Shown in pieces: positions 1 to 59,487 of a stretch of DNA of 64,000 nucleotides. This DNA is from Psilocybe cubensis (taxonomy: Eukaryota). The number at the start of each line of letters is the position of its first letter. Position 1 is the first letter of the stretch. The DNA is taken from the NCBI GenBank assembly GCA_017499595.2, contig CM039001.1:3348001-3412000 (forward strand), read 5' to 3'. A model generated the notes under the pieces. It had not been told where the DNA came from and ran no database searches. It worked only from the letters and a program-made list of their open reading frames with translations. The position numbers and the translations under genes were made by a program.

Positions 1-773
1 TGGTGTGATTTAAATAATTGTGATCCTTTTGATGATCTTCAAGGGCCTACAATCACTTGATCATAAACTTGCAACGGAGGTTCTGTACTATCCTCGACTT
101 CTTCAAATAGGTCACCATGGTACGAGATTGTCCTTAAGAAGGTTACCATAAAGTTTCCAGCTTCAAACCACCGGTTACGGTTGAAGTATGAGGGTTAGTG
201 AACGCCAAGCAGTAGGCCGGACGGACCGCGGATATCAAAATGACTTATAAGGCAGGCATCATGCATGGATGGTCGAGTAAGCGCCTGTGTTGCATATATC
301 CGAATTTGAGTCTCAAACAAGACAATTAAAAAGCGAATCCTTGAACTTATAGAAAAAAAACGAACTCACCCTAGAGACATTGGAAAGGTAGGACATCCAA
401 ACGTCTGAAGCTACTCCGGACAGGGTTTCGCCATTTTTTGCGTGTTCCTCCGTTGGAAAAGCTTCGAGTTACATGGGAGTGTGTTCAAGTATATAAGAAA
501 AGATGAGCGGCCTTGTCGATAACCCCATACCCCCCAGAGTTTTTTTAACCACCAAATATCATGGGCCGCTGCCTCCGCAAAGTCTAACGATATAGTGCTT
601 ACTTATCGGCCACACTCAACCCCACAAGCAAGACTGAGTCAAATGACTGCATGTAAATTGATCCAGATTCGAGAGTCGTACTGACCCGATTTCTTGCGTC
701 TATAAATCCAATGCGGCCGGAGTGCGGCCGTTTAATTATTTGGTACCACACAACACAGTTAGATTGCAGGCTC

Positions 774-2758: not shown

Positions 2759-4567
2759 TATCGGTTCGAGATGGTGATTAAAAGAGAGATAGCAAATTTT
2801 TGTGGCATTCGTCCATCTAACCCTGATCTAAGGTCACAATTATTTTTAAATTATTAACCCGAAGTGTTGCCGAATCCGAACCTTTACCTTCGTTCAACGT
2901 CATTCATACTGTAGCATATATTTAATGTCCATAGAGAAGAAAGATGGAACTGAAAGGAAAAGTATCCGTTGAAAGAATGGCCTGGTATGATTGCAACATT
3001 TACTTTGCTTGACGTCATCACTGATGTTGAAAACCACTGCTCAGCCTAAAATTGCCTGGAGGCTAACACCAATGGGAGTCTTCCCAAAGCCCTAGGGCAC
3101 ACCCTTGCTCAAAAGCTTCCTAGAACTCCTTGCTTCCTAGAACTCCTTGAAGGCTCTTAATTGACTCTCCTTGGCACTCTTGCCGCATCTTGTTCTCGTT
3201 CATTCACCGTTTCTACTGGCAGTGGAAATATAAGAAGGAAGGGAAGCAATCACTTCATACCGCGAATTCTCAGGTATACGTCCCAGATCAAAATCTCTCC
3301 CTTTTCGGAGAACCTGGACATATTTGCAGTAACAACACCTAAAATGGCTCACAAAATCGTCTCGCGTGTGTTAATTTTCCGTTTTTCGAGAACTAGAGCC
3401 CGGAGGAGGGAGATAAAGCAAAAGAGAACGAGACACTAGAGCCTCCCGATACGAGGTCTGCTGGTACATAACGGTAATGAATCAACAACCCGATTTTCAG
3501 TCAAAAATGATGCTTCGCTTGCGGGACATACATGTTCTAGTTCTTTGTGGATGATTTTACCGCTGAGAGCCGCTGAGGATGTTGCAGAACTCTTCGTGGC
3601 CTGCTAATCCGGATAAATCGGAAAATAAAAGGTCAAGGGGTATCCGAACATCTCAACCAATTGCTCATCGGCGATGTCGAAGCCCAACGTTGGCAGTCAG
3701 GCCGATTCTCCATGTGCAAGAGTAAATTTTCTATCTCCACACCAAAGAAGCGACCGGTTTTCAAGCCTATGAAGTAAATGCTAATTCAACACAAACCGAC
3801 GTATACGAGTTCTTACGTGCTCCGATCGTACCTCATGTTGTGTAGACTAAGAAAAAGCCAATTGTTACTGGCTATGAACACACGCCGGTGATATACGAAA
3901 TTCAAAGGAACCTACTGACCACGCATATGATCTCTGGGCATTAAACGGGTAGACATCTCCTACTATTCCTATACAGCCTGTAATACCTTAAAGGATACCC
4001 GCCTTAAACTCAGCAAGATAGATTTTCCTTCTTCCGAATCCGTTGATAATTATCGCGAATGGCCGGAATCCTCGCAGTGAACATCAGTGAACATTTTCCG
4101 AGGAAAATTTACTGTTTCAACGTGCGCCACCATTTTTTTTAAAAAAGATACCCATGAGCTAATCGGCATCTTGTTTTAGATTGGATGCCCATTGTATTTC
4201 ACCCTTGAAGAGGATACACTGTGACGAGGTTTAACGGTGCCGGTTGTGCCCGTGAGTACTCATGTCCGAATGTCAGCTACTTGGCAACGTAAACATGATA
4301 CATTGCGACAATAAGCTACTCTATTCCGTTGACTTCAAATATCACTATGACTTGGACTCATGAGTGTCTTTTAAGTTGTCACCCAGCCCCTGAACGATGA
4401 CGATGACGCGCGCTTGGTGTGCTAAAAGTCACGTCAAAATCATAAATCACGTGAACATTAATATAATTTGAATTTCAGACTCCGAAAAATCAATCAGCGT
4501 TAGTATGCGATAACGAGTCTTCGTCGTCTCAGAATCCATTCGAACCCTGTTTATTCACTAGTTCATA

Positions 4568-6511
4568 ATGTCGCATCCCATCGCCTTTACACGTCCAGAG
4601 TATGATTGTCAAACGATAGATTCGTCTGGCAGTGCGCAAAACTGGACTTTAGTCAAGGAGCGACTACGTATTTTAAATTGCGGAAAGGACGCGCACGGAT
4701 ACAGCGAATTTTCTGGATTTGGATGTCCTCCTTTAACCCTTGGGAAGAGCGGCGACATTTACCTTGATCTTGACCCTGCATCCATCAATTTGTATGGCCG
4801 CTATACAGACGAATGGAAACTTTGGCCGGGACCTCATTCCCGTGATGACGTTTTGTTACATCCAATCTACCAAAATCGTTGTCTATGGTGCTCTGAGACG
4901 ATTGGGTGGCAAGCTCTCAACCGTGTACAACTTCATCAGGGTGAGAATAAAAAGCTGCTCCCAGTCTATTCTTATCATAACTTCCCCAGATAAGTCTCGA
5001 CAGATTGTCATCGCCAATTCTGCTACGTATGAAGAACATCAGAAATATGTAAAGAAAAGACAAATTCTGGAAACTAATGGTCCAAATCCAAAAAGGTCCA
5101 AGACCACAAAGAGCCCAAATCAATCACAGGCCTCCTCGTCTTGCCAACGTATACCAAAAAATTCTAGTATGTTGTAATTTTATCATATTATACAAACTGA
5201 GAGCGATGGTCCCGAATCGAGCTGTATCATCTCATAGCCAACATCTAGGGCCGACGACCAACTCTCCATCCCGATTTGTTTCAAGTGGCGGTCAACTCAC
5301 CACCGCATCTGTCCGAGTACACATGGCATTTGGTTCTCAAGTCATTGCGAACACATCTGCCGGGCTCCGAAGTCCTATAGCGGAGGGAAACGGCATGGGA
5401 ACCGGAGAAGAACCTAGCAATCTGGTTGCTGACTTTGAAAAACTAAAAGATGTTGCAAACACTGCGGTGTATGGGTTACAGATCGCTCAGCAACAAATTG
5501 ATCGTTTGAAACAAGAAAATGATTTTTTGAGATCAACGCTGGCGCAACTTTCTCAAAATGATAGAAGTCGTGTTCATCACACGCCCCGGGTGGAATCGGC
5601 CCTGACTAGCTTGGATCGCGGTGAGCTTACTAGTGTGGTTAATTTTGCTTGGAGCAAGGGTTTGACGCCATCTCGAAACTTGTTTAATAATCCATTGCCT
5701 TCAGGAACTGAACGTTTGACTGGACAAACACCGGATGTGAACACCGAAGTTCCACCAAACGGTATTTAAAAATCAAAAATTTTCATTTGTATTAATTGAT
5801 TATTGATTAAGATAATGTGCAGGGATACCAGATGATGCAGACTTCCTTAGCGTTAACTCTTCAAGAATATCAGGGAATTGGATTCCAAATGACAGCCTAG
5901 TCCAAATGCAAACATCAGGCGCCCATGCTGTTGAATCAGACCTAGACCATCCACCAAGCTCGCTTCGAGTTGCCGATTCCATGCCTATCGATATTGGCTG
6001 CACAGCTCAGTCTCAAGCTCTCGTCAACGACAAGGAAGCTGCGGATCTACCAATGCCTCCGAGTTCCGTGCACTCTCTGCATAGTTATCGAGTAGAGTCG
6101 GAAACGGAAGACGCACCTGCCGGTGCCGGTATCGGTAAGGTCTAATCTAAGCGCCATCTGGAACACGTGTCAGGAACTTAAAATCGTTATCTAAATTACC
6201 AGAAGCACCTTTGCAGCTGAAGCTGAAGCTTGAACAGGCACATATGTCCATTCTCTATGGACAAGTGGATGATTTTATCGCTTGTAGACTTTGCAGGTGA
6301 GTCAAAAATAATGACTACGTAAACGGAACACATTTATAACAGTTTGTGTCTTAGAGCGCAAGGTAGCCCGATTTTCGAAATAAAAGCAGCCACACAAGAC
6401 TCGAGGAAAGCTATGGAACGACATCTCATTGAAGAGCATCCGGTTGAAGTTGAGACGATGTGTTGTCTGAAGTACGATGATCTCCAACAGCTAAAAGACG
6501 TGATGCTGTGA
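4568..6511 (+). CDS. Hypothetical multi-exon protein with a central coiled-coil-like stretch and a C-terminal CxxC...HxxxxH putative zinc finger, copy A
   Basis: ORFs 4568-4993, 5077-5769 and 5906-6145 can be linked by GT-AG introns. The spliced 3' end reads CRLCRAQGSPIFEIKAATQDSRKAMERHLIEEHP...DVML* (TGA 6509-6511). Internal exon boundaries are approximate. Confidence 0.6.
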
Positions 6512-9500
6512 TTTTCGTTCTGAAATCATACTTGTCCTCCGAATTGATTCTGATTATTTTGATGGGTATAAACGTGGATTTTGACCCTTTGAAATGATTG
6601 TGGGGCTGTGTATACGTGAGATCTTATCAGTTAGTTTTTTACTTGCGCAATCTGTAAGTTTTTAATCTTGGTTCCTACAATATACTGTTATCTGTAAGCA
6701 GTGGGGTCACTTTGCGAATTGAGAGGATATACAAGTGCACGATCTAAAAATACAGTGTCGGGGTGTAAGTCGATAACTCCTCTATGTCGATGGTAGAATG
6801 GCCTCAAGCACAATGATATGATTTCTTCAAATGTATCTGTACTCTGCTCGGGATGGCCAAGAGAAAATCTTGTGGTCGCAAAATTCACGATATCAGAATA
6901 TTTCTATTTTAATTCTATAACAAATGGATCTGGCCAAGATTCCCATCTATCATATTCGCAAACTCGGCCAGATGACCTTGAAGGTGGACGGCCACGATAT
7001 GTCACCACATATCGGTCCGATTCGCGCGGGCAACACACCTTGTCGTCGTTTCCTAAATGTTGAAGTCCGAATGAGGAGGGATTGCTTCATTAGGAACAAA
7101 AGGCCTCAAAGCAGTATAGCGACTATGATGTTATCGTCGGTGGATTAAATGGCTTTAGATGTCCACCGTTGAGTCGGTTTTGATAAGTTTCCATTGTCGG
7201 AACATCTTTTTTTCAATACTCCAAGTAGGTATCTTTGGAGATATACTCTTACAGGGTGCTAACTTTTGCACCCCATGCCGTGCTTCTGTAAATGCTTGAA
7301 TTCTTAATGACAAAAGTAACGGTAGCTAGTTTACAAACCTGTGTATTGAGTTGATGTTTAACAGGAAACGTACCATACAGTTCAGACGGAATATACAGTG
7401 GACGGGGATCAAATGTCGGACATTGTAGAAATCTTTAGGTGTTAAATGACGGCTAATACGAAGATGATAGGTGTCAACATAGAGTTACAGCAAGATATAT
7501 ACATTTTCCTTGTCATAGTTCAATTGTATTTCTTACCTTCAGTTATCAACTACTTGCACAGCCATTTTGTAAATGTTATACCCAAGCACAGATGCCAGAC
7601 CCTCTTCGCAAGCGATTTTTTGTTCGGGACAGCTCTCTTAATCGGTATGGCCTACGGAGGGCACGAAAAATATTCCCAGCTTTATAAATGCCCGTTTAGT
7701 TAGAAATTAATTGCATACAGCCTGTCTGAAAGGCTCAAGCGCCCATTAATATGCTTAGGCCCAGAACTGGGCGCCAAAAGTAGTTTTATTCATTAAAAAT
7801 GTGGAATATCACAAGTAAGTTTGAAAGCTAATCCATAAAGATGGGAAACTATGAGAGGTTACAGGTTACCTTTAGTCATTTTCTGTCGCTGCGGTTAGCT
7901 TCAATCCTACACAATTTTGAAGATGACAACGGGTCATCGACAGATATTGTGACATAGCATCAATTACAGATTTACGATAAAACGGACAACAACTAGGGCG
8001 ACTACCGGAGATATACCTTGAGAACTATTGGAAGAAAAACAGGACTGCGTAGCAATCTCTCAGACGCACAGTTCTGTCATCATCCAACGCTCGCGAATAA
8101 CAAGGGCATATTCCCACGTAAGCCGTGCACTTGGACATTGTGGTATGTTTTGTCTCTAAAAGCACCGTAGTAATCGCTACATTCACTGAAAGGTTAGACA
8201 ACTATCGTATGGGCGAATATGTACCGACCAATTTGACAGCCGATACCAACTTCATGGAGCTTACTGCTTAGAATAGTTTAGTACCTCAGTGGGTTTATCT
8301 CTGTTATCAAGACGCTTTCAAGCAAGTTCTCTGTTAGCTGTCCAGTGTATTTACTAATTGGCGGCGGCAGAACATGCCCTGTCAGCAAAAAGATGAGAAG
8401 TAGTCTGGGAGCCATTCCATACACCTTGCTCTCCAAACACGAAACAACTGCATACCCATATCATTTGGCATGACTATGACAGAGGAGGCTCTAGACCGAG
8501 TCGTGTTCTGGTGTCGAGATTGAAACTAGCGCCACCGCTACAACGACGACTCATTGTAAAGAATGCTCACTTCAGATATGATAAAGACAATTCATAGATC
8601 TAATAGTAGGTAGATACTAGATAAAGAACGAACCAGCTTATTTCAACATGGTTTGCTATTCATATCACTCAGGTTGGCTTGAACATGGTAGAAATATTTA
8701 ATTTATTACTGACACACGGGGCACTGAACTGTGTTTTCTGTAGTCCAGTTTAATTGGTATTTAATTCTGAAAAATTCTGGAGTGCGCTGTTTGCTTAAGC
8801 AGATTGAATTGCTAAGCGCTTGCCGGTGGCCGCGGAAGCACAGATGTAACGCTCTGGCGGTCATCGATCGGAGAAGGTAAGAAAACGGCAAGCAACGGCA
8901 CCGCATGGCACAACAATTGGATCGAGATTGCGGCATCCAGAATTTGAAAAACCCCTGGTACCTCATATGATACCAGCGTGATCGTGCAGACTTGTACATA
9001 CTGGCATTGGCAAGGACGATAGATTCAGAGAGCCGGGGATGAAACCGAATAATGGTGAGGACTTCCGACACTAACATGAATCGGTTATCCGCCATGACCT
9101 ACGGGTACATACTGCTATTGAATATTCAGCAAAGAAATGATACATACATATCTCAGTGCGCTTCCCCTTCCTCCCACACTTGGGAACTAGAGATATAGAT
9201 CAGCTATGGTGGATCACTAGAGTGGTCCACTCACAGCCTAGAAGACCAAACTAGCCTAGTAGCCTACCTACCTAACCTCGCCGGACATATTGTATGATAT
9301 TGGGCATTAGTCAAGCTTCAACGTTCAAAACCAACTATTACTTCAAATTCTACATTTTATGAGAGGATTCACGAAGCTTCGGTGATACACCAAAAAGTGA
9401 GACTATTACCACGAAGCGTACTCCTTTGTCATGATTTAATTTGTAGTAATGACCAGAAATATTATGATGACCCTTGGGCGACCCTGGCTAATAATGATGT

Positions 9501-10556
9501 TTTGATAGAGTCGGTGATTTACAATATAGAATGCAATGTGATCACCCAGTCCGCTGAATAAAAAGCCTAATTTCTGATGTCAATTGTTATCATGATGCAG
9601 CATGATGGCAAAGAAAGGCTATCATTGTTAATCGCTTTAGTGGAGTAGCCAACGAGTGTCAACTTGAAAAAGAGAATCCTTCAGTAAAGTTTACCGTGCC
9701 AGTGAGTTGTGTTTTACCTCGAACTTCTATCTTCAACGGCAGTTTCATGATTTGGGATGTGTATGTAATAATGGTTGATAAATTGAGGTTTTCGCGTAAG
9801 AGGTAACACTAGCATCGCGATATCCAATGAGCGTCTCAGGAATCAGGATCCTTCGATTTGACACTTGTTTCCCGACATCGAATATGTATTATTATTCAAG
9901 CTGTAAAAATCGTCTCGAATAGACAAGAGGCTTTTAAGCGATGTGCATCTAAACACTGCAAGAATGGGGCATGAATTCATTGAATACCGTATTATGGGCA
10001 ACTATCGAGCTGTCACATGGTCCTTATTCGATTCAGTCACCAATTGGCTTTGAGGCGCTAGCGAAAAAAATGATCAAAACGTGTTTAAACCTATAAAGAA
10101 GGTTTATCCCGACTCAAGGGACCAGCCAATGGTTACCCCACACCGCTCAGTTGGCTGTTGACATCGCTATCCGGGAGAATCCGCAGACCTTGTCCAAAAC
10201 GTAGCACCCATTGACTATACACACAATACGTAAGTTAAGAAGGCTGTTCTCTCGCTTCTTCGTATTTCCAGTGGGTGGTATTACATTCGTTGCTGTGGCT
10301 GCAGGGCAAAAATTCAAGCGATTTTTAAATCAAATAAATGGATAGTACAAGTGGAAGGGTCAGACGACGTTGTTCGCGATAAACAATAAAGGCGCGCTAC
10401 AGTGGGTCTGGGTCCAATTTGAATTATTTGACGGAAAACTTTCAGGGCAGTGCCAAAGGCGCATCTGAGAGGTTATGGCGCGCTAAATAAGCCAGAAGTT
10501 ATAAGCGAGTACTTTGAACAATTGTTTGAATGTGATAATACCTTACGCCACCATAT

Positions 10557-11974
10557 TCACCAGTCGGAGAAACCCTGAAATTTACCATCCCAGCTCCACC
10601 ATATCATTTCATCATCTTCCAGATCGAGGCCAGTAGACGACACTGATAATGACTCTCGAAGAAATGCTGAGGGCTGTATACCTTGACGAGTCGTGATCCA
10701 GACCCCTTCTACTTTGGTCTTCTTGGTATGTTTAGGACGATTGATGGATTGGTTTTCAGCAGTCTGCAATCCGGAGTTGTTGAGAAAATCGTGTAAAGAT
10801 GTATCAAGTGAATTGGAGACATTTTGCTGAGGAAGCCAAGCAGGATGACTAAACCGCCTAGGTGCGCGAATAAGAACGTGTGTTTGAGTTGGGGCTAGAA
10901 AATATAGTCAATAAAATGATGACTGTCAAGTAAGAAACGATAAAGATACCATACCCAGTTCAGAACTTATCCCACATCCTTCCGCATCCGCTGCTGCAAG
11001 GGTACGAGAAAGAAGACGTTCGGCTTTCTGTAAAAATTGTAATTCTTCCGCGCGAGATACATAGAGTGGAGGTGGCGGATCTTCTCCGATAGATTTATCG
11101 CCGTTTTCCTCTTCTTCGCTTTCGCTTTCGCTTTCTTCTTCGCTACTGGTTTCTTCACTATCGTCATCCTCACTGTCCTCGGGTATGTCGTCGCTTTCAT
11201 CATTATCTTCAACACTGTCGCCTTCATCTGATTTATCAGCTTGGACATCTTCTCTTTCATCCTCGGCAATTTCGGCGTGATCCCGGGAGATTGTTCGTTC
11301 GTCCCTAACGCCCCAGATACTTTGTTCTAACCCATCAATCCCAAGAAATAATCTAGATTTTGCTGTTGTTACGCTCGGCCCCACGAGAATGGCCAAATGA
11401 ACTTGTGCCAACTTGGAATTCTGGCCAGCACATCGCGCAAGTGCCGTAGATAATGCAGAGAAGGTGGTATCAAGATGGGATGATATAGTGTCGTATGAGG
11501 CCAGTAATTCGGTACGTTGCTTGGCTGCGCGTGTGTTCATCTAGAAACCAAGTCAAGGAAGGTAGTAATATCATATTGGAGATTAACAGACCTTGCCACC
11601 CGGAAGCCTTCCTAATTGCATCACAGGACTAAAAAAGAGAAATCGTTTTATCAATGAAGAGAAATTGTGAAAATAAGTCTTGAAGCTTACAACGGGACCT
11701 GATTCTTCAGGAAGAGTACGTGTCCTAACAAACTTGTAGCCAATCTCCCAGCAGTGGCATCGTTGATTTTTTCAACTTCCAACTTCACTAGAGGGTAGCT
11801 TGAGGACTTTATAGACTCCAACTCTCCCGTATCAATGAGAATACTTTTCTCTGGCACTGGGCACGCTGTTATAGCTGGAACTTCCTGAGCATCGCTCGTC
11901 TTGCATTCGTTGACCGTAATTGATGATTCCACAGTGCCCGTAGAAGGGCCGCTCTTTGGTGTAAGATAAGGCAT
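10557..11974 (-). CDS. Conserved hypothetical protein resembling p31comet/MAD2L1BP (HORMA family) with an acidic insertion, copy A
   Basis: Four exons can be assembled: LATSLLGHVLFLKNQVP / PVMQLGRLPGGK / ...AILVGPSVTTAK...acidic tract / TQTHVLIRAPRRFSHPAWLPQQN...EMIWWSWDGKFQGFSDW*. The gene itself is well supported; the family call is from recalled motif similarity only. Confidence 0.7.
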
Positions 11975-12583
11975 CTCAACGTGAACCTTTCAAGAATTAG
12001 ACACCTGCGGCGATGGAATATATAGTTGTGGGTTGTGCTGAGAGTGCTTCCAGAAATCAACCACTGTCGGCGTTAGTGTCACGTCGCGTCATCACAACAA
12101 ATTTATATCACGTGTCCGTGGTTGTGAATCGATTTTGGTTGATGAAACCTTCATGAATAAACATTGTTTTCAAACCACGAAGTCGTAAAGCAAGACATCG
12201 ACCTAGCAGTCAGTAAATATCCACGTATTCCAATTTTTTTATCGATTTAAACCTCTTAATAGTGTGCATGCATCTCGAAACCCGAGACGACCTCATTGCC
12301 CCTATTTTCATGGAATACCAAACGTATCATTGCTATCACAAAATGAATATGCCGTGTGCGCTTCATCTTGACTTGCGATTTGCGTTTCGCTTAGGCCTTC
12401 GGTCTTGACGGTTGAATACAGGCCTCAGGTCAGCTCTCCGCGCTCACAAATTTTACAACTATGTTGTTTATTCTATTCCTCGTACTTAAGTCCTCGTCTT
12501 TCCCACATGATTGTCCCCATAGAATTGAACATCAAGGCGGACTATATTTTACTAAGTTTCTGATTCTGTCTTCATTAAACCTA

Positions 12584-13175
12584 AGATTGGGCTCATCAGG
12601 AACCAGCACCCCCTTAGGTAAGCAAAAGTTGGCTTACCTCCGAACCTTTTCAACCCTTCTGCACTCACACTATTCTACATTTTTGAACCACAGATATGTA
12701 GGTTATGCTTCTTTGAACACATCTGTGGTTTTTTTTTTCAAAAAAATTTTGATCTCAAGAAGTTATAAAGATTTTAATTTTTTTCCTTTTTTTTTAGTCT
12801 AACACGTCAGAAATGGTGTTTTCTCGAGTTTGGGAGATTTTCGAAAATTTGACAATGTTCTTTTGGCCGCTTATATAATGGTACACGTGACCACACGTGA
12901 CAATAAGTCACGCCTAAGTAATACCTCTCAGACTCATTATGGACTTCCAGAGACTACAATTTGACCTCTGAGGTGTAATTCTATTATTGTGGGCATAAAG
13001 GCTAGTAGTAAGGATTGTATATGCACATTTATGAATTTTTTTTTTTTAAACTTTTTGTCTGAAACCATTTTCCGTCAACATAACTTTTGATTTTTTTTTC
13101 GAGCTGGATTTTGGCCGCTCTTGGCGCCAAGCCCATTGATTACGTAAGGGTGCTGGTTTCTGATGAGCCCAATCT
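12584..13175. mobile_element. 592-bp non-autonomous MITE with TA target-site duplication (Tc1/mariner-like target rule)
   Basis: 28-bp TIR AGATTGGGCTCATCAG(G/A)AACCAGCACCC at 12584-12611 and 13148-13175, one mismatch. TA at 12582-83 and 13176-77. Copy B has a single TA at 54623-24. AT-rich interior with no convincing coding capacity. Confidence 0.95.
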
Positions 13176-14936
13176 TACTGATGTTGTACGCGGCCCATCT
13201 TGAAACAGGACAACGATTTTCAAAAAATACTTGATCAAATTCTAATATATTGGTATGATGCGATTTGATTAAGTTGACAAGGTATGATACTTTCGGATTC
13301 GATTATGCTGCATCAGCACGCTAATCCTAAGTGCTCCTAGATATTGCTTCAAGAAAATTAAATCAAGTGACGTAGCAATAGGCGGGGCTCCCCCACCCCA
13401 GACCATTTATCGTGCATACCCCGCGGCGGAAGTGTTCCGACATCGGAGGATGACAATTGATATAGTTCACTTTTACGGGTTTGTTTAACATCGTGTGCGA
13501 TTTTTCTAATTCTTATGGCGTCTACTTTTCTGGGTATAGAACACATCATGCCATAGACACATTATTATGATGTCCCGAATGTGTGTTATCGTCGAGTAAC
13601 GATAGCATTGCTGTTCCAAACGGCAGGCCTATCTCAAGCCACACTGCCGCATACATCGGATTGTACCTGCTAGCCGCTAGAACGCCACGAGGAGTTATTC
13701 AAGCGGCTGTCCCCTCGGTCAATGATGTGCAAGGCTGGTGGTTGGCTGGTAGTACCCATTTCCTCCAAAAGGTAGGAGTCATACTCTGTGAATTTTTACT
13801 GCGAGCAGGTAAACCCAGCTATAGCATCTTAGCAAATATCCAAAGCGCATACCTTTCAGTAACGAAGCGTTTAGGCTATCATCGCTGCCGCCTTCTGCCG
13901 CATTGAAGTGTGGGTTGCCGTATTAGTATTGTACCTGGAAAGGAGAATCTGCCATTCGATTTGTTGTTTATTGTGGACCAAACGCTGGTAAGTATGAGCA
14001 GAATTTTATGATCGGCTTGTGTGTACAACCTCCACCGTTTTATGTCAGGTGTATACCCACATCAGTCTTAGGAAGCGATTCCATTACTTCCCACTACAAT
14101 TGCAAGGCGTGCGTGACACACCTCCAAGATTCAATTTCACTATTGTCAACATTCATTGGCTCATTATGCTTTTAAAGGACAATGGATCAACGGTGGATAT
14201 ATCTAGCTGGCAATGATTGGACGGAAATAGCTGATGTTGTCAGACCCATGTGCACGGCCAGACATGGTCAATGATCAAACATAGTTCAGAGCTGTCCACA
14301 AACATTGACACTGTGGTCCTCCCTGTGAGTTCCGAGTAGAGGCTAGCCCTCGTCATAACGCGATATGTCATAGCGGACAACTGTGGAAACCGCCGTCTGG
14401 TATCGCCCCTTTTCCCATATTCAATCATCCTTTTCCGAGAGAAGCATCCAACGAAGTGGTCATATCATCATTCAGACAAAGTTGCCCAGACATCAGCTTC
14501 TTTCTAATCTCGTCTTTGATCAAGCCCCATCAAATCAGGTCTGAATGGATCTGCAATGTGCACCTTTTTCGTCGACCACTAAGTTTAGTCACGTTCCGCG
14601 ACATACCCCCGAGAGGCTACAGCATCATAGGGACGGCTTCTTTCTCTCAAGTTTCCGGTGGCACACATGAGCATCCCCACGCCCTGTATGTTACGTAGGG
14701 ATACCGAGATCTCAGATTTTGTGGCTAATCTTTTCTGTGTTTTTTTATCGCGAACCTTACCGATCGCTTTTCAAATAGGTCCACATTCGTCTTACGGATG
14801 AGTGCCCCCGATTGACCCAACTGGATTGTTCCCATAAATGTCCTAGGGACAAACTCGTGGCTTTTCTCTTAAGAGCTTGACGAGACCAGCCAATGTGGTC
14901 GCCAACCTCCAATTTTCTACCCTCCTCCAATCCCCC

Positions 14937-16030
14937 ATGCCTTCTCCTCTCCTCTCTCGCCTAGGCAGCTCGATGCAGGCCACATCGTCAAGGCTAGGAT
15001 ACCATGCCTACACTATCTTCCTTTTCACTAAGTCGGACATCAAGACAACATTGATTCCCGTGGTATGCGCGTCTCTTTTATTTTATTCCTCATTGATTTA
15101 CCATTGATGGTTCAATTTTAGGGCTGCTTTGCTCTCGGTGCCGCCCCGCTCTCCCCCACTAATTCATTATCCCACGCCGTGCAAGCCATATTTTGGCTAT
15201 GGCTACACCTCCTTCATTTCAATCTTGCGAATCAAGTACATGATCCAGAGGAGGACATGATCAACAAGCCATGGCGACCCATTCCCACCGGTCGTATCAC
15301 TCTTGCACAGGCAACCGTTCTCCGATATCTTGCGCCATTCGTATGCATGGCAGTCTCGTTACTCTATAGCCGTGCAGTGTTCTATGCTGCATTAATCTTT
15401 GCTATTCTCGTCCCCATTTACCATGAAGCGAAGGGTGACTCCCACTGGCTCTCTCGCAACTTCATGAATGCCTTTGGATATGCATGTTTCTCGACAGGCT
15501 CAACTTTGATTGCATGTTAGAGTCTTTCATCAAACTTTGTTTATTTTCGTCATCGCTAACTTTCTCTCCTTTTAGCACCAAACAGAGCGCAGCTCGATGT
15601 TCCGGGGGCGCTGTCAATATTTACCATTACAGCTATCCTAGCTACGACTATTCAGGCCCAAGACTTCCAGGATGTCATCGGCGACATTAAAACAGGAAGA
15701 TTGACATTGCCGATAGCCTTTCCCAATTTTTCTCGATATACTCCTATGGTGTCCCTTCTTCTCTGGGTACCTTATTTGACTTCTGTCTGGGAGATCGGCA
15801 CTGTTGGAACCATTGCCTTCACGGTTCTGACCATTATCGTTGGTCTGAGGTATCTCCTTCTCAGATCAACGAAGGACGATCAATTATCTTACGTCTGGTA
15901 CAATGTGAGTAGACAATTTTTATTCCATTCTTGTTCTCGATGTTGAACCTTTTGATTCAAGGTTTGGCTTGCCATTGCATTCTCCATGCCTGGATACTGG
16001 CGTTACTACAAGGAATCCGCTGCCCTGTAA
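14937..16030 (+). CDS. UbiA-superfamily membrane prenyltransferase / candidate UbiA-type terpene cyclase, 4 exons, copy A
   Basis: Motifs FLFTKSDIKT, NLANQVHDPEEDMINKPWRPIPTGRI and QAQDFQDVIGDIKTGRLTLPI. Several hydrophobic segments and three short GT-AG introns. Ends YYKESAAL* at 16030. Confidence 0.88.
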
Positions 16031-16636
16031 TCCATGATCATGAGGCATCCAATGTCTACCACCCTTTGTAATTGTCCATAGCGTGTACTGTACCAGTTCC
16101 TATCAGTTCCTCCTCGCCTGTTGAAGTTACCCATCCAACATCATCCTAACTACACCGACTATAACCTGCTATAAATCGACACGTCACCAGCAACAACCAC
16201 CTGTATTCTTCCATCACGACCCACTACGATAACCCACCGCCTCACGCTGACGATTTCCGATTGACTCCGCAAACTTTCTTGTGCTTTGTACAATTTTCAC
16301 AATTTCCAACCTTTCCAACCTTTTTCAACTCAGCATCATTATTTGTCCAGTAATTTGTAATTGTACACCCCAACCTTTTGATCTCAGTCCAAATGCTTTA
16401 TCACATTTTCCCCGCAGCATCCTATCGCCCTGACTCCTGATATTCTGTGCAATGCTTTTTACGTCGCTGTCCGCTGTACTTACTTATCTACAGTAGTTTA
16501 TGATCTAACTTGTACCGTATGTAACGAATCCCAGAACACCTGTTCCCGTTGATGACTTCACAATCTTGCTACGATTCCACGCACCGTCGGGCTAGAAGGA
16601 CATCAAATATTTAAATATTCAATAATGTACAATGGG

Positions 16637-17839
16637 AGGACCCCTGACAATAGGCCCAGAGGACGTTCCCGAAAAAGGTCGATTTTTGGGTTTTTTGTCC
16701 GTCGCGATTTTCAAAATTTCTGTCCGGATATAGAACGACCTACCAATTTTTTCAAAAATTTGTCCGGAAATCGGGAACAACCCTCGGGAGGCCCAATTTG
16801 TGTCCGGACAGGCCTAAAAATCGATTTTTTCGCCGCTGCGCGCGTTCAGCTGAGTTCAGTCGCAAATGGGACGCTTCAGAACAATGTTAAGAATCACTGT
16901 AATAAAAAAAAAACCTGCCTAGTACAATACAAAACCATAAAACGAGTATGCGATGCAAAAAAAGCTATGTACTACTATCTAGGTTTCGCTTTGCAAACAT
17001 TTTCATCGCTTTTTTGATGCTCCCTACTCCCTCAACCAATGTCTTGTAAAGCGAAATATCTTGCGCATGAACTTCAAAACCTGCTGCAGTGACAGACAAG
17101 GGTTTATGATAGAGGAGGGTGAGTAACTTGCAGGAAGGCAGGTGTGCAAATTCAGATACATTGAGCAAGGCAGTTTTGGTGGGTCTTGCAGTGAAGTAGA
17201 GGCCATGACTGTGCTCGAAGACTTGAAAAGATGCTTTTGAAAGGGCACAGACATTGGTAGTAGTCGCAACCGGCTGGTTTCGTGAGTGCTTTCCGTTTGG
17301 TTTCTCACTCAAAGCAATGACTAAAGTACGGCGTGATCATTAGTCACTACATCGAAACAGCTCCAACTGATAGTCCACTTTACCTTTGCCAATCTGAATC
17401 CTATCATCAAGAAAAAGGAACTACAATTGAATGTGTGATGCAGAAAATCTATGTAATAATATCTAAATTTCGCTTTGCAAACATTTTCATTGCCTTTTTT
17501 ATTCTCTTGAACTATGGGTTTACTAAGGGCAAAATACTAAAAAGGCGATATTGAGATTAGAAACAACGACGTAGTATCACAATACGAAGGGCGGGAGCGA
17601 CTACACGCTCAGCCTCTATACTAACCGATGACTTATATTTTGAGGGTCGTTGATCACGATATATGTCCGGTTTTTGGATCGACCTCGGCGGTCCTGCAAC
17701 TTTTCTGTCCGGATTTTTGGAACGACATTTTGCTCAAAATCTGGGATTTCTGTCCGGTTTCGGAACGTCCGAAGGGGTCGATTTTCAAAATTTTTGTCCG
17801 TCCGACGGAACGTCCTCTGGGCCTATTGTCAGGGGTCCT
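16637..17839. mobile_element. 1203-bp non-autonomous TIR DNA transposon with 8-bp TSD, copy A
   Basis: Perfect 33-bp TIR AGGACCCCTGACAATAGGCCCAGAGGACGTTCC. TSD ACAATGGG at 16629-36 and 17840-47. Subterminal TGTCCG motifs at both ends. Internal 115-aa minus-strand ORF fragment at 16965-17312. Confidence 0.93.
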
Positions 17840-18040
17840 ACAATGGGCTTGTCGTAGCACGTCAATTATCAGCTGATTCCGGCGCTATTTAATTTTGGCC
17901 ATGCAATTGAAAATAACAGGCTATGAAATGCTTATATACAAATGGTATCAATTAAGAAGGATTCTAAAGGAATAGAAGTAAAATAGGGCGCCAGTAGCCT
18001 CCAAGAATACAATACATGTAAAAGAAATTTGAAGGGAAAA

Positions 18041-19873
18041 TTACTTCTTGACAGGGGCTTTCTTCTTCTTTGGCGCTTTGATAAGAGAGTCTTTGGTTAT
18101 ATCTTCATCTAGGTCCTTGTTCTTCTCATCCTCTGAAACGTCATCTATCACATCATCAACCTATAATGACAACGTGGCCAGTCAGAAACGTGGAATCATG
18201 CATGTTCTATAACCTACGAAGGCCTCTTCCAGGTCTGGGGCTGGGCCACCGGCAAGTTTCTTCGGAACCTTTCCTAAGTCTTGCGCTTTATGGAACGGTA
18301 TAGGATGTTCGGAGGCGTTGTACCTTTATTAGATCACCAATTAGTCATCGAAAAAAATTAGCGCCCCTTGGTACACACTTTCGCGTCAAGGCTGTCTTTG
18401 TGGCCGTCGAAATTTTCTTCATGATAACATCGTCTTTCTTTTCGTCAACGCCCAGTTCGATAATAGTATCCCAGTCTTCTTTCGAAATGTAATATTCATC
18501 CATACGCTCAATGACTTCATCGACAGCACTCTGCCAGGATGTGGTTAACTGTTGACCTTTTTTTTTTTTGGGAGGATAGACTAAAGACGAGATACTCACA
18601 ACACCTTCGTCCATGAGTGGTTTGACCATGTATGGGAACAAGGATGGAATATATGATTGTCTGATCTCGGTTTTATCGCCTGATACTTTCAGTCGCATTC
18701 GGATTTGAACGTCGCCTAGTTGTCGGGCGAGTTTGTTCTGTTTCGAATTTTGGCCAAGCCACCTAATTAATAATTAAGCGCCTTGCACAACCAACACATC
18801 AGGAAAACGATTGAAAACATACTGAGGGAATGACATCGCATTTGGGCCTCCATAACCTGCACCGTTTCCGTATAGGTTATATGTAGGGGTGACGGTAGAG
18901 CAAATCGCATGCAACGGCATCAGTCCCCAATGTTGTTCAGGCCTGAGTGAATATCGACGATTACATCAGTTATTAAGCATTCACTTGCCTCGTGTTAAGA
19001 AGAGTAAAATGCACGCACCCGTGAATCAATGCGTCCACAAGATCTCCGTCTGAGATGGACGAAGCGGCGCGATCCATTAGCTGAAGTTCTCTCAAAATTT
19101 TCTCTGGCCCTTCAAGATTACGAATCCGAGCAGGTTCTGTTTTCAGATAATTTTCCTACCGATCCGTGAATACACCTCCGCGGATAACGTACGACGAATA
19201 CTTCATACCTGGATGAATAAAGGAACAAATGAATGATCCTGGAAATAATAATCCATTTTGTCTCCCAAAGTTTCTCGTGAAGTCGGTGAGTAGACATATG
19301 GGCCTAATAGTTTTGAGGTGATGTCAAAAGGACTTAAAATAGAGTACTTCTGATTCATCTTGGCACTAAAACGGGGACGCATGACAGTCTTGCTTTGTAG
19401 TGATAAGCGCACGGCGGAATAGAGTTACTCACAGGTCTTTTCCCTCGTCGAAGTCCATGGTGTCACTCGACAATTTCCATGTTGAGAGCATGTTGAGTAC
19501 TTGGCGAATATCTGATTGTGCCCCATTGATGAGTTGGTCAATAACGTTGGCGGGTATTTTCATCTTCTCCCTTCGGAAGAATAAGAATCAAGCCATGAGG
19601 TAATTGATGACTTGTCACTTACTTGAAAGCGATGGTAAGAATTCTTGATCGTATCGATTGCGCGGGAGGCCTTGAAACGAGTAATACTCAGTGATACATA
19701 AGCGTTTAATTATATTTTCAGACATACTTGTGAAAGGGGAGGCTAAAGGTCGTAGCCATCAAGGGCTTTAGCTTTTGCGCCTGGCGATCATTGGCAATGC
19801 AGATGATAGGAATCTGCTAGAAAATTAAGTCCGCTGACCTAAGAATTAGGCAACGGTGCGGACCTTGGTTTTC
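18041..19873 (-). CDS. RFC1: Replication factor C large subunit, 3' portion only; cut by the assembly gap
   Basis: Identical to the 3' part of the full gene at 59488-63555 (KSDIRQVLNML-type region, DYYFQDHSFVPLFIQ, MDEYYISKEDWDTI). Confidence 0.92.
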
Positions 19874-19973
19874 NNNNNNNNNNNNNNNNNNNNNNNNNNN
19901 NNNNNNNNNNNNNNNNNNNNNNNNNNNNNNNNNNNNNNNNNNNNNNNNNNNNNNNNNNNNNNNNNNNNNNNNN
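19874..19973. other. Assembly gap of exactly 100 N
   Basis: A run of 100 N. The round size suggests a placeholder for a join of unknown length. Confidence 0.99.
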
Positions 19974-20172
19974 TAACCCTAAACCCTAAACCCTAAACCC
20001 TAAACCCTAAACCCTAAACCCTAAACCCTAAACCCTAAACCCTAAACCCTAAACCCTAAACCCTAAACCCTAAACCCTAAACCCTAAACCCTAAAACCCT
20101 AAACCCTAAACCCTAAACCCTAAACCCTAAACCCTAAACCCTAAACCCTAAACCCTAAACCCTAAACCCTAA
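19974..20172 (+). repeat. Telomeric array (CCCTAAA)n = TTTAGGG type, about 28 units, oriented as a left chromosome end
   Basis: Nearly perfect tandem heptamer at the start of the contig. One CCCTAAAA variant near 20091-20100, and TTAGGG-like 6-mer units at both extremities. Confidence 0.96.
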
Positions 20173-21513
20173 CCAACCCACACTCGAGGGTCGTAAACTT
20201 TCTTGTTGGGCTTGTCAGCACCCTCAGGGTTACCGACCTGAGTTTGGAGATAATCCTTCTTTTTGAAAATGAAGTCCCGGATACCGACGAGATACGCAAA
20301 TTGGGTATCGGTGTCGACATTCATCTTGACAACACCATGTCCAACAGCGGTGGAAATTTCCTCCTTTGTTGAACCAGAACCACCGTGGAAGACGAGATAG
20401 AGTGGCTTGGTATCCTTCTTGCCTATCTGCTCAGCGGTATATGCCTGATGGTTGCCCAAAATCTCGGGTTGAAGCTTGACATTTCCTGGCTTGTAAACAC
20501 CGTGGACGTTGCCGAAGGCGGCGGCGATGCTGAAGTTAGGTCCGATGGCGCTCAAAGCCTTGTAGACATCGTAGATGTCATTGGGTTGTGTGTACAGGCT
20601 TGCGTTATCGACGCCAGTGTTGTCAACACCGTCTTCCTCTCCACCTGTAATACCGATTTCCATCTCGAGCCAGAGCCCGAGGGGAGCCATCCGCTTGAAG
20701 TATTTGACACAGGTGGCGATGTTTTGCTCTTTGGGTTCTTCGGAGAGATCGAGCATGTGGGACGAGAACAAAGGTTCCTGGTGCTCCTTGAAGTAAGCTT
20801 CATCAGCCTCAAGCATTCCATCGAACCAGGGGAGGAGCTTCTCCGCGCAGTGGTCGCTGTGCATGACGACGGGACTGGATAGAGCATGAGGGCTTGTTGC
20901 CATACCCCAAAAATATGGTACTTACACGCCGTAAGCCTTCGCCATCAGGCGGACATGGTGAGCAGCGCTGATAGCGCCCAAAATCGACGCCTGCTGCTTG
21001 TCATTGGCAAGGCCCTTGCCTGCAAAGTAGGCAGCACCGCCCTGGGAGACTTGGATGATGATGGGAGATTTGATGTCACTATCATCAAGATAAGATAAGA
21101 ATAGACAGGAAACTTCGGCTATTTGACTCTGGTCACTCACCGAGCGGCTTCGAGAACTGCATTGGCTACCGATGTGGAGGTGACATTCTGCGGGTAAAAC
21201 CGGTCAGAAAATGCAACGAAGATGATATGTAGACAACTCACGATGGCCTACAGAAGCTCAGATCAAAGTTAGGGGCTATCCATTTCAGAACTTACTGGGA
21301 TTGCAAACTGCATACGTCAAGTCAGAAAAAGCAACATAAAAATCCCCAGTCAAATCACGTACCTTGTGTTCTTTGGCATAATCGAAGAGTTTGCGAACAT
21401 TGTCGCCAGTCAAAACACCTGCCTGATGACGTAGACAACGATCCAAAGATGATCAGTCATATCGCCCAGAGCAACAGGATATGACCTACAGGTACGACGT
21501 CGAGGACACCCAT
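20169..21513 (-). CDS. FBA1: Fructose-bisphosphate aldolase class II, 3'-truncated by the telomere array
   Basis: MGVLDVVPAGVLTGD start. Motifs HSDHC, FSSHMLDLSEE, EMEIGITGGEEDGVDN, FGNVHGVYKPG, VFHGGSGS and KMNVDTD. Ends NKKVYDPRVWVG* where homologues continue with about 20-25 more residues (VREGEK...). Confidence 0.95.
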
Positions 21514-30874: not shown

Positions 30875-33570
30875 TATCCCAACATATAACACTCACAGAG
30901 CGCAGACGTAGAAACCTCTACAGGGTAAACTGAATGGGCTTGACTAAAGATTGGGGAGTGGCAGTAGAGGTGGGGGATGCCAGCAAGCGCAACAGCATTC
31001 AAGAACCCGTCTTTTGTATCCACTTCCAAGGGCTGCGTGGATATTCGACTTCTCATTTCCGAACCAATCAGCATATTGTCGAGAATCCAAAAGTTTGAAC
31101 AGAAGGAGAAAGAATATCGCAAATGGAGCGTCCGTGCCGAAGGAGCGAAAAAGTCGGTTGACAGACATCTGGAGAAGCTGAGAATTTAGTTTCAGGGTCG
31201 TCGGCGCCAATTGCCAATTTGACGGCCAGATTTTCGGTGTCCGCCATATCACGGTTGATGTTCCTCCTAAGCCTGTTGCTCTAGACTTTTGAATACGTGA
31301 TGAATGAAGGTGAAAGGGTATGTAGTATTGAACAAAGACACCAGTTGGTCGCTCTAAGCACGATAATTATGGTATTTCATATCCCAAGACGAACAGTTGG
31401 CAGACCACCCACCTAGTGGAATTGGCTGAACCGGCCACCCGGATATATCACCGACTCCGTGGATCTATGCAAGGGTACGGACGATATCCCTTCCTAGTGT
31501 CCTTAATGCTTCTTCATCATCTTGACTTTGTATATCAGTTGAGCCTCGAGTAACAATTCAGAGTGGATTCTAGCCTGAAGTTCCATCAGACATCATACCC
31601 AGCCATCTTCTTAATCAAATGCAGGCGTATGGTGGATATTCTGCCCATGATCTTTCCCTTGGTTGTAATATGTAGCCTTTCTGGCATCCTAAGCCATGAT
31701 TCTGCTAGGTAAGAACTCTGGTTTCCTGTAATGGCTTTGGTGGAAAAGAGCTACAGGCCAGATATTGAGCCAATGTTGAAAATTTAAAGCACTCGAGGCC
31801 TGACCGTCGTCAAAGGAACGCTTCATGGTCGTCATAGTGTTGTACTTAAGCAGACTGCGAAAGCTTTTAAGCATTATAGGAATTGAGCTAGGTCCTTCTG
31901 AGTCACCATGATCAGTAAAGTTTGCGTCGATTCCACCGTACTTGCATTGAGTTTCCTTCAAATCCAATTTTCGAGCATGGCTATACTTGGTCCTCCAGAG
32001 ACACAATTAAACAACTTTCAGACATACCTTCACTTGCTCAAGCTTGGATGTTATCATGAGAGATAATGTTGGGGGAACTGATGGTAGAAGAGAGAATTAC
32101 GACGTACATTTGCGAGTGACAACCTGCAAATGCGATACTGCTGACGTCGGGAGGTTGCGCCGCCCCTGCGGTGGTGGTAGGTAAGTTAGATGAAACCAGT
32201 GAAGGACTGTGTGCGTATTGAGTTTTAAGGTTTCTCTGCAATGTGATTTCTGGACATCTTCTGAAACTATAGGCGATGAGCCAATGCGACGCTTCTGATC
32301 CACGCCGGCGCGATTGGAGACGTAAGGCATTCAACCCTTCACCCGAGGTCCCGATTTTGTGCATCTTTTCTTTTAGAACCTGTTCAGAGAGAAAATTAAA
32401 GCGAGAGTCAGAGCTATCATGAATGTACCATCTTCCATAACTGACTGATGCGTGCAGTGGGAGGCGAGGACAGTCAAGTCATCATAAAATTGGCAACGAT
32501 GTAGAACTCCTCGTCATCTATCAGCCCTCTGAGAGTCTTCGCTTACAATAGCCGAAGGATCCCTCAATCTCTGAAGCGCCTAGGATGTCGAGTGGACGTT
32601 ACAGAGATGATATTGGAGGTACTGTGGGCAGCTCCAATCGAGATTGCGGGAGATTATCGATAGGTACCACACAGGTATTTGACGCAGATGACCAAAGGTG
32701 CAACAAAGGAGGGCTGAATAAAAGACAGATGACAGGCAGCATGCAGGAGTCGCAGGATTTTTCCAGTGGATTTAAATTTGAATGTAGACCCCTGGATAAT
32801 TCAGTTAGTTGGCAGCGCGCGTATTGCGGGGGATTGCAGGTTCATTGCGTCCTAATCGTGCCAAAAAATCCAGACTGAGATGTCTTCGTGTAGAGTACAA
32901 CTTGAATGTATGCATATATTGCAGATAAAGAGGTTGCGTGTATATACCGATGAAGGGCACATCTATGCCTGTTAAGATATTGCGGTTTTCTTCACTCGTA
33001 AGATGCAGCTACAGCACCACTCCGAAACGTGTGAAGCATTCAAAGTTCCTTCGACAAACAAAATTTTCGTCAGAAAAAACATGCTTCACCTTTTGATCTG
33101 CTATCGCGGCACTCACAATTTATGCACCCCGATGAATCCCATCTTGTCTACGTGCTTTAGAACATAAACTCCTCCGATCTACGTTGAAAGTGATGTATAA
33201 ATCTGGCAATTCTGCGGACGATTATAAGCGAGAATATGCGCTCTGATAGCGTGCCTTTCTCGCGGTAATTTACAGAAGCTTTTGGTTGTTCGGTCGCCAA
33301 AAGAGGTTCCTCTTGTAGCCCCTGTATTGTGGCATAGACTCTGAATTTGTCCAATGCTATACCATCCATCGACGACTGATAAGGAGCTGAGATATTATAC
33401 ACCAGGGTGTACACGGTATCGCATTCGCCAAGACATGGTGATAGTCAGGAAGGAAGAGAATGAAAGGGCAATCAGTCGCTTTTGGCAGGTTGCATGTGGT
33501 GCGGCCAACATTGATCAGACCTGTTGCACACGACCACGGCCACAACTTGACAAGTATACTCTGAGCAACC

Positions 33571-34804
<1,234 letters not shown>

Positions 34805-38419: not shown

Positions 38420-41144
38420 TCACATTCCTTTGAGTTCTTTCATACGTATCCACAAGCCTCCCTATAGAGATACTTCCGATGAGAGCAGCTATACACAGTA
38501 GTTGTAGAATTGAATACCTTGATGTACATGGTTACATGCGCCATGGGAAAGATCTTTTCTGTCCCTTTCAGGTTGTCTCCAAATTTCCACTCAGCGGGAG
38601 GAGGAGTGTTGGCAGATTGATCCAAAGAAAATTCCGTAAATTGTTGTAAGAGGCGAACGAGGTAGAACGTTGCTTCATGATAGGCAAACTTACGTTTTTA
38701 TAAGTAAGGTGAATAGAATAAGGCGAGTCAGAACTCACTTGTTGACCAATACAAATTCTAGGACCGGCATTGAAGGGGCAAAAGATAAATGGATTTGGAG
38801 TGAAGTACTTCTTGAGCCTCTCATCTATGAACCTGTCAGGGTCGAATTTTAAGGCTGTGGGTATATCTAAGTAAGTAACGTTTCATATTGTAAACCGCTT
38901 GAAGCAACGCACCATCTGGACCCCAGAGATCCTCCCTGCGGTGTATGTTGGTTACCGAATACAGTACACTTTACAAGAGTCAGTAAATTAGAATAATGCA
39001 GGAAGTATGTGCAAAAGCATCTACGTCGTATTGGCTGGTACGTAAATCGGCTTTCCTCCAGCTTTTTTAGAGGGCAACACAGTTGCCTTAGTGCTGATTC
39101 TACATGAGAACATTAGCTTTCAGACAACATGGACCATTGTCATAGCTACCTTGAGTCAGCAGGTCTTGAGGGGAAGATATAAATTAGCGTCGGACGATAT
39201 GGTACAGAAAAAGTCATACACAGGGGGGTAGAGCCGGAGAACCTCTGTAGTGGGCGAATGTAAGAATCATACAGTGTCACTAAATGTTACCACAAACCAT
39301 TTAAGAATGCCCTCATGTACTTCATCTCTCGCATCTGGTCGTATGTCGGAGTCTCATTTGCACCCACCTTTTCCAAGATCTCATTACGAAGACGCGTTTC
39401 GATATCTGGATGCTCTGCAAGCATATATACGGCAAAGCTTAGAAGACACATAGTCTTACGTGCAGCATCTGTCAGCGCCGGGGGAGTTGAGGGAATATAA
39501 TCCTACGTACTGTATCACGTCCAGCAAGAAGAAGATTGATGAGCTTTGAAAATCATATCTGTCAGCAAGAGAGTCAAACTGAAGATCTAAGGAGCTTACT
39601 TCATCCTTGATAACTTTGGGATCTAAAATGGAAGATAGCGTATTAGCGCCTGTAGTGGCTAGGCTTGAGTAATATGGCTCCGTTACCTTGAGTATGCTTT
39701 ACCAGATGCGAAATAAATGTTTCCTCCTCTTCTTCGTCCGGGGATTTATCGTTAAGTAACTGCTGCTCTCTTTTGTCTAGGGCTTTTTTCATTAGAGGGT
39801 CTATGAACACGTCCATAGCCTTCCGGAAAGGAAGCACTCTATCACTCATGAGCTCATCCAGTGGCCACGCATCACCCATTCTAATTCGCATGACAGTGTG
39901 ATGTAATCCTTCCATGAACGAATCGGCAAAAATGCTGGCTGGATGATCATGAAGTGATGAATTCTCTTTCGAGGATTCTTGACCAGGGTATGGCATTCCA
40001 GCAGAGAGCGATTCGACACTCCCTCCAAAAAGAAACTCAGCAGCCGAATCAAGAGTAAATCGAGCAATAAGATCCTGTTTGATATAAATGATAGTTAGAT
40101 ATATAGTAGATCGAGCACAGCTAGCTTATCTGATGACCTGAAAGTCAATGGAATATCCTTCAGCCAACCTCTTCTTGGCCATCTGCAGCGATATTGTTGC
40201 ATTACGGTCATAAATGTGGAAATCGCTTATTCGCTCTCGACTGAAGAAAGGCCTAGACATTGCACGGTGAAATCTAAACAGAAGATGTTGAGCAAGTTTG
40301 GCAAGATAACATGAACTCACGCACTTCCACATGTCACCTGTAAGTATGTTGATGTATCAGCAGTTGTGGTTACAGTCGCAATTAAAATCATATACGTACC
40401 GTCTGAGTTGAAAACCCCTGTTCCCAACAATGAATCCAGCTGAGAAATCAAAGTCGGTCCTAATAAACGGTCATTTTTTCTCCAGGCTTGTAAGATGGTC
40501 TGTAGACACGCCTTTGTCAAAGTTATCGAATTGGGTAGCTAGTACTGCCTATCAGTGAAAATGACGTCAAAAAGGTAAAATAAGAATCGTAAATCACTAC
40601 TGATCTCGTACCTTGACATGGTCGGGCTCGAGAGTAGCGATCTTCGATCGGTATCCATTTTGGTCAGCATGAAATTATCCACAATAGCAGCCAGCTTCTT
40701 ACAAATTTGGTACTGAAAAGATTAAACCTGAATGTGTTTCCGTATTTTTTGGACCACTGGAAGTAGATATCGGCTAACATTGAGGAGATAGTCGATTGTT
40801 AGTTGAGTCGACCGATAGCATCTTGAAAAATACGCACCAGGATAACCGCCTTGGAAGGATTCTGCAAACTTGGAGACGACTGAGAGTAGCGGTTCTTGTA
40901 CCTTTGGAACAATGATAGCGCCATGTACAGCAGCCGCTTTGTTATCCGCCCATTCGGAGTAGTAGAGGTTGTAGAAAAAGAGAACCGGTCTTGCTAAAAG
41001 AGACAAGAAAACGATAACTGGGGTAGGCAATGCCGTGTCTGTTTGACGCAGTAGAACCTTGAGCGTGGCATAAGTCACAGCCGAAGGAACTGCGAAATAA
41101 GGTAAAGTTCTCAAAAGGTACGCTAGGCCTGGGGATAAACCCAT
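38420..41144 (-). CDS. Cytochrome P450, CYP63-like, multi-exon; tandem paralogue of the adjacent gene
   Basis: MGLSPG start; [36 protein letters not shown]; heme motif [13 protein letters not shown]; ends [13 protein letters not shown]. Confidence 0.92.
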
Positions 41145-54622: not shown

Positions 54623-54624
54623 TA
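54623..54624. other. Empty TA target site of the MITE
   Basis: Reads ttcattaaaccTActgatgttg, versus TA-[592 bp]-TA in copy A. Confidence 0.95.
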
Positions 54625-59286: not shown

Positions 59287-59487
59287 ACAATGGGCTTGTC
59301 GTAGCACGTCAATTATCAGCTGATTCCGGCGCTATTTAATTTTGGCCATGCAATTGAAAATAACAGGCTATGAAATGCTTATATACAAATGGTATCAATT
59401 AAGAAGGATTCTAAAGGAATAGAAGTAAAATAGGGCGCCAGTAGCCTCCAAGAATACAATACATGTAAAAGAAATTTGAAGGGAAAA

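Follow-up and report, generated by a model that had tools for sequence, protein, structure and literature searches.

A telomere array joined directly to a truncated class II fructose-bisphosphate aldolase gene in a Psilocybe cubensis assembly: a candidate healed chromosome break

In this work, we have used computational approaches to analyse a stretch of 64,000 nucleotides (64 kb, referred to throughout as the window) from a Psilocybe cubensis assembly, in which an array of telomere-type repeats meets a class II fructose-bisphosphate aldolase (FBA) gene of the FBA1 type. The features of the locus are collected in Table 1. Since the array abuts a run of Ns, it marks where a contig begins within a scaffold, and the deposited record does not end here. 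We call contig A the sequence to the left of this gap and contig B the telomere-bearing sequence to its right. The genes that lie behind the telomere are FBA, UPRTase, P450, ADE2, UbiA and RFC1, that is, a housekeeping set, and there is no subtelomeric DNA among them. The Pfam scan gave matches on 9 of the 73 ORFs scanned, and most of the other ORFs of at least 90 aa located between 22 and 42 kb had no Pfam match at 1e-5.

Table 1. Features of the 64-kb window and their coordinates.
Feature	Position	Strand	Remarks
Contig A, left of the gap	1-19873		redundant copy of 42042-61320
Non-autonomous TIR element (MITE-like), 592 bp	12584-13175		30-nt TIRs, 97% complementary; TA duplication
Scaffold gap	19874-19973		exactly 100 N, touching the telomere array
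Telomere array	19974-20172	minus, (TTTAGGG)n	TRF and sequence reading
Junction	20173-20179	minus	gene-derived GGGTT at 20179-20175, then two G at 20174-20173
Truncated class II fructose-bisphosphate aldolase gene (FBA1 type)	20169-21513	minus	335 codons and a TAG borrowed from the telomere
Aldolase exons	21513-21490, 21422-21363, 21307-21296, 21247-21242, 21187-21141, 21078-20926, 20874-20172	minus	
Uracil phosphoribosyltransferase gene	33565-33975	+	Pfam; between FBA1 and ADE2
Cytochrome P450 fragment	38571-38882	minus	Pfam; between FBA1 and ADE2
Interior of contig B duplicated by contig A	42042-61320		contig B continues through the whole of RFC1 to at least 64000

Between 19975 and 20172 TRF delimits 28.1 tandem copies of a 7-bp unit, AACCCTA on the plus strand, with matches of 98%; base 19974 also belongs to the array, which brings its total length to 199 nt, or about 28 units. 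On the minus strand the array reads (TTTAGGG)n, and on the plus strand it consists of CCCTAAA-type units. One internal unit is an 8-mer variant, the unit nearest to the gene is a 6-mer (20172-20167), and the canonical 7-mers begin at 20166 on the minus strand. From the start of the contig the C-rich strand reads 5΄ to 3΄, as at the left end of a chromosome, and these terminally oriented repeats are joined directly to unique, non-subtelomeric sequence. A search of the 64 kb for further telomere-type dimers (two units of TTAGGG or of TTTAGGG, on either strand) gave none. An earlier inspection of the same DNA, which we call here the sequence-only reading, had held that some 28 telomere units run straight into the aldolase gene with no subtelomeric DNA in between, and both TRF and our own reading of the sequence confirm it: between the array and the gene there is no DNA that is neither telomeric nor genic.

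The length of 199 nt falls within the range reported for fungal telomeres. Telomeres of about 20-30 repeats have been described in Pyricularia (PMC8381367), and TTTAGGG telomeres of ~100 bp in the agaric Stropharia rugosoannulata (PMC8874372). For a related agaric, Agrocybe chaxingu, the repeat reported is TTAGGG (PMC11433599), and in the P. cubensis draft genome paper the string 'telomer' appears nowhere (PMC8220353). Our literature search found no statement on the telomere repeat of Psilocybe, and no agaric with TTTAGGG besides S. rugosoannulata. The ADE2 exon of the window (43853-44683, minus strand) shows 98% identity to ADE2 of P. cubensis, the next match being that of Flammula alnicola with 77%, and the family of Psilocybe is close to that of Stropharia; TTTAGGG is therefore plausibly the native telomere repeat of the source organism. 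Plant contamination as the origin of this plant-type repeat was also considered, and is unlikely in view of the fungal telomere length, the terminal orientation, the fungal contig and the occurrence of TTTAGGG in an agaric.

The aldolase gene starts with an ATG at 21513 on the minus strand and is made of 7 exons separated by 6 introns of 48-67 nt, all of them with GT[AG]NGT donors and YAG acceptors. Its 333 codons up to the Trp codon W333 (20180-20178) contain neither a stop nor a gap, and their product is 90% identical to residues 1-333 of a full-length homologue, P0004. The gene model was computed to 20178, that is, to codon W333, and the last two codons (V and G) and the TAG were read straight from the sequence. 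The last exon matches PF01116 (E value 3e-55, 188 bits with a cut-off of 25.5), and its 233 residues align with chain residues of about 102-335 of solved class II (type A) aldolases with E values from 4e-114 to 4e-85, the best structure matches being 7rgn_A (4.1e-114) and 7yva_A from Candida albicans (7e-111). In the protein search with this exon, 7,979 of the 8,000 scored proteins had E values of 1e-60 or less; among the 120 listed, the exon matches agaricomycete aldolases with identities of up to 89%. The window protein shares its family with the class II aldolase structures 7rgn, 7yva/6lnk (C. albicans) and 1b57/1dos (E. coli). By descent the gene belongs to the class II fructose-bisphosphate aldolases, although it is not complete.

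What is missing from it is the C-terminal tail. The structure alignments end at chain residues 333 of 357 (7rgn_A) and 335 of 359 (7yva_A), that with P0004 ends at residue 334 of 358, and the window protein stops 24 residues short of the C-termini of the solved class II aldolases. Six full-length homologues compared by tblastn align up to residues 333-338 in their own numbering, which correspond to the Val of DPRVWV, at 20175. After the DPRxWV motif, all of the 120 listed homologues have at least 23 further residues, and 110 of them have exactly 24; among these 110 tails, the REGEK residues and several positions after them vary little or not at all. In the AlphaFold model of P0004 (36-sequence alignment, mean pLDDT 83) a terminal helix spans residues 331-351, and the window protein retains just the first four of them. 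The statement in the sequence-only reading that class II aldolases go on past DPRVWV into a long C-terminal helix is supported by the 120 listed homologues and by the P0004 model; this helix may contribute to the dimer interface, as was proposed there. The missing tail, sought with the six full homologues by tblastn and with the last 30 residues of the 120 homologues, is not encoded in the 64 kb: the only match is the stub YDPRVWV at 20195-20175, the others being noise with E values of 0.049 or worse. The earlier suspicion that a last exon of the REGEK type is lacking holds as far as these 64 kb extend, on both sides of the array, and neither is there a second FBA gene in the window. Since the truncated product lacks the 24 conserved residues and most of the terminal helix, and the gene lacks its 3΄ UTR and polyadenylation signals, this is probably a null or crippled allele.

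At the junction, the minus-strand frame reads D-P-R-V-W-V, with the last V codon at 20177-20175, followed by GGT (20174-20172) and TAG (20171-20169). The stop codon had been said to arise in the first repeat, and it is indeed built from the first, 6-nt unit of the array. The description of the junction as GT-rich and telomere-like was also correct; the GGGTT found there corresponds to the repeat, permuted, over 5 nt. Seed-type 5-mers of this kind end at 241 (0.55%) of the 43,821 positions of this strand in the telomere-bearing contig. The G at 20174 is the first base to depart from the expected gene sequence; the relatives have C in this place, and an Arg codon would begin with it. The two G that separate GGGTT from the array belong neither to the expected gene sequence nor to the repeat register, and the 8 nt that follow the seed (GG and the 6-mer unit) are out of register with GGGTT.

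On the other side of the gap, positions 1-12583 are 100% identical to 42042-54624, and positions 13176-19873 are 100% identical to 54623-61320. The duplicated block, of 19.3 kb, carries ADE2, the UbiA prenyltransferase gene and the 3΄ part of RFC1, all of which are normally single-copy genes; contig A stops in the middle of RFC1, at the gap, and contig B passes through it. Contig A reads as a redundant variant contig (a haplotig or a bubble) that was scaffolded beside the telomere end. Since it is a redundant variant copy of DNA situated 22-41 kb inside contig B, the scaffold join has no meaning, and the scaffold context is almost certainly artefactual. The sequence-only reading had described the array and the gene correctly and had overlooked both the gap and the duplicated contig. 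The identity between the copies begins at the first base of the window, so contig A may extend further to the left; it is either only 19.9 kb long or continues leftward, possibly through an intact FBA1. A real tandem duplication of 42 kb was considered as well, and is unlikely in view of the 100% identity of the copies, of the gap beside a telomere that forms the join, and of the end of the copy midway through RFC1. Users of this assembly should be aware that gene counts and coverage are inflated here, with ADE2, UbiA and part of RFC1 doubled by the 19.9-kb contig A, and that it contains a telomere buried in a scaffold, a redundant contig, and a truncated FBA1 whose gene model would pass for complete in an annotation.

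The sole difference between contig A and its copy in contig B is the 592-bp element, for which contig B has a clean empty site at 54623/54624. A MITE seems to have inserted here very recently, presumably one of the Tc1/mariner type, a class that we take from the TA duplication alone. Because the two contigs differ by a transposon insertion, at least two structural versions of the region must be present in the sequenced DNA, and this makes a haplotype-specific or sub-clonal truncation of FBA1 credible.

We lean towards the view that the junction is a recent terminal deletion healed by telomerase, in an allele that is probably not the sole one. A double-strand break would have occurred in the last exon of FBA1, and the chromosome arm distal to codon 334 would have been lost. 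The G-rich 3΄ end (...GGGTT) would then have been the seed for the organism's own telomerase, which would have made an irregular start (GG, then the 6-mer unit) before adding ~27 canonical TTTAGGG units, the array being maintained thereafter at normal telomere length. The product would be a 335-residue aldolase without the 24 conserved residues, and the truncated allele would exist beside an intact copy, either in the other nucleus of a dikaryon, or on the other haplotype, or in an unbroken majority of the culture. We favour this healed break because the repeats are in terminal orientation, the array has a natural length, there is no subtelomeric DNA, housekeeping genes adjoin it, a seed is present and the gene is undecayed; as the 333 codons show no decay up to the break, the event would be recent. 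The sequence-only reading had proposed the same event, in an allele tolerable only if an intact copy exists elsewhere. The truncation point, the conserved tail, the terminal orientation, the seed and the intact rest of the gene fit its proposal, and the intact copy is something that we infer, as are the action of telomerase, its recency and the allele fraction. Class II FBA is essential in yeasts and the 64 kb contain no second FBA gene; fixation of the truncation would hardly be tolerated. Also counting against a healed break are the 8 nt that are out of register after the seed, the position of the array inside the deposited scaffold, the TTAGGG repeat reported for A. chaxingu, and the presence of a single telomere in the window.

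The next explanation, an assembly artefact, we judge unlikely. One or a few chimeric or mis-joined reads, or a step of telomere extension or polishing, would have created the junction, and the real chromosome would continue through an intact FBA1. Few reads underlie contig ends, and the local assembly is visibly imperfect, with a telomere placed inside a scaffold by a 100-N gap and 19.3 kb present twice at 100%; also in favour of an artefact are that an essential single-copy gene is the one struck and that the first repeats are irregular. However, the orientation of the array, its terminal position and its natural length suit a real telomere, no subtelomeric DNA came attached to it, and a 5-nt seed is expected by chance at only 0.55% of positions. 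A random ligation chimera would rarely combine all these features, and such a chimera would require a fragment of telomere alone whose break fell precisely at the proximal edge, which is unlikely. In addition, contig B is at least 44 kb long, so it does not consist of one odd read.

An improbable alternative is that telomeric repeats were inserted interstitially at a repaired break in FBA1, in which case the rest of the exon would lie past the array and the assembler would have broken in the repeat. The array has unique DNA on one side and, on the other, the 100-N gap followed by an unrelated duplicate contig. That a gap and not the record end follows the array is compatible with such an insertion, and the neighbour in the scaffold is uninformative, since the join is arbitrary. 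Nevertheless, an array of 199 nt should not break a long-read assembly, and the 28 resolved units with their internal variant suggest that the reads were long. Moreover, the missing tail is found on neither side within the 64 kb, what lies across the gap is mid-RFC1 sequence, and FBA1 would be disrupted under an interstitial insertion as well.

Still less probable is that we are dealing with an old and fixed chromosome end, bearing either a shortened functional aldolase or a long-standing pseudogene. The intact frame closed by a stop would agree with the former, but a dispensable tail is difficult to reconcile with its retention in 120 of the 120 listed homologues, many of its positions being invariant. 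A pseudogene of some age should have decayed, and neither the 333 modelled codons nor the 6 introns have done so; nor does this end have any subtelomeric structure.

Lastly, the sequence-only reading had suggested that GTTGGT after DPRVW could be a splice donor, in which case the repeats would be intronic and the last exon would lie past the gap; this is contradicted by our data and can be taken as effectively refuted. Formally, GTTGGT is donor-like, as it fits GTNNGT, and in relatives an intron does occur in this region of the gene. However, all 6 real donors of the aldolase gene have A or G at +3 and none has T, the introns of this gene measure 48-67 nt, and GTT codes for the conserved Val, V334 being invariant in the 36-sequence alignment. 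Six relatives' loci were compared and three of them, from metagenomes (L065, L018 and L017), were read base by base. These three read TGG-GTx/ATC-CGx-GAG-GGT-GAG-AAG without interruption (W-V/I-R-E-G-E-K), and in all three the intron is 8 codons upstream, after KPNKK, with none after DPRVW or DPRVWV. That upstream intron is lost from the window gene, and no tail exon was found within the window.

De novo telomere addition has been described in several systems with which the healed break that we favour can be compared. In Magnaporthe/Pyricularia oryzae, rDNA and MoTeR truncations are reported to have been healed by de novo telomere addition (PMC7367193, PMC8381367), and 19 of the 24 de novo telomeres reported in Magnaporthe were extended from seeds of 1-4 nt (PMC7367193). 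Candidate de novo telomeres arising in culture have been seen in raw reads of other fungi, for example Pyricularia (PMC8381367), and chromosome breakage in Zymoseptoria tritici offers a comparable case (PMC6510446, 10.1101/304915). As in these filamentous fungi, in the window the repeats sit on unique internal sequence without subtelomeric DNA, there is a short seed, and the array has a normal length. In contrast to them, the break cuts a housekeeping gene of the essential type in an agaric, the 7-mer TTTAGGG forms the array, and the first units are out of register. Sub-clonal events of this kind can be detected in long-read data from cultures; the case in the window is known from the assembly sequence. 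Telomere healing of subtelomeric breaks has also been reported for Plasmodium falciparum in culture (PMC5550746). As described there, a broken gene is capped directly by telomere repeats, which is the arrangement seen here, although P. falciparum is a haploid parasite that loses non-essential subtelomeric genes and the gene of the window belongs to the core of glycolysis. Healing of this type is well documented in fungi, and the window would add a new instance, from an agaric and in a core metabolic gene.

What would a healed break at this locus mean? If it is real, it would be a nucleotide-resolved example from an agaric in which a core glycolytic gene was knocked out, it would bear on how much recessive structural damage can be tolerated in a dikaryon or in a long-propagated culture, and it would provide one data point on the use of seeds by a telomerase that makes TTTAGGG. 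As a tentative scenario, possible in our opinion and to be taken as such, one nucleus of a dikaryon (or of a heterogeneous strain) may have suffered the recent deletion that cut FBA1 and acquired the new telomere, a lesion that would otherwise be lethal being sheltered by the second nucleus, in the same lineage that shows a fresh TA-targeting MITE. If this were true, the deletion and the MITE together would point to ongoing structural mutation in cultivated or clonally propagated mycelium.

Some further features of the aldolase gene deserve mention. Two consecutive micro-exons, of 12 nt (21307-21296, coding for FAIP) and 6 nt (21247-21242, coding for AI), are present on the minus strand, and both are confirmed by the gap-free alignment, with 90% identity, of the spliced product to its homologue. 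The best 120 aldolase matches (the first having 89% identity) include none from Psilocybe, although ADE2 matches P. cubensis at 98%; a 90%-identity cluster may conceal the Psilocybe aldolase, or the P. cubensis genome may lack its annotation. The intron after KPNKK is a phase-0 intron common to the relatives (L065:1002-1047, L018 at about 1545-1592, and L017 at about 3435-3483), and the lineage of the window gene has lost it.
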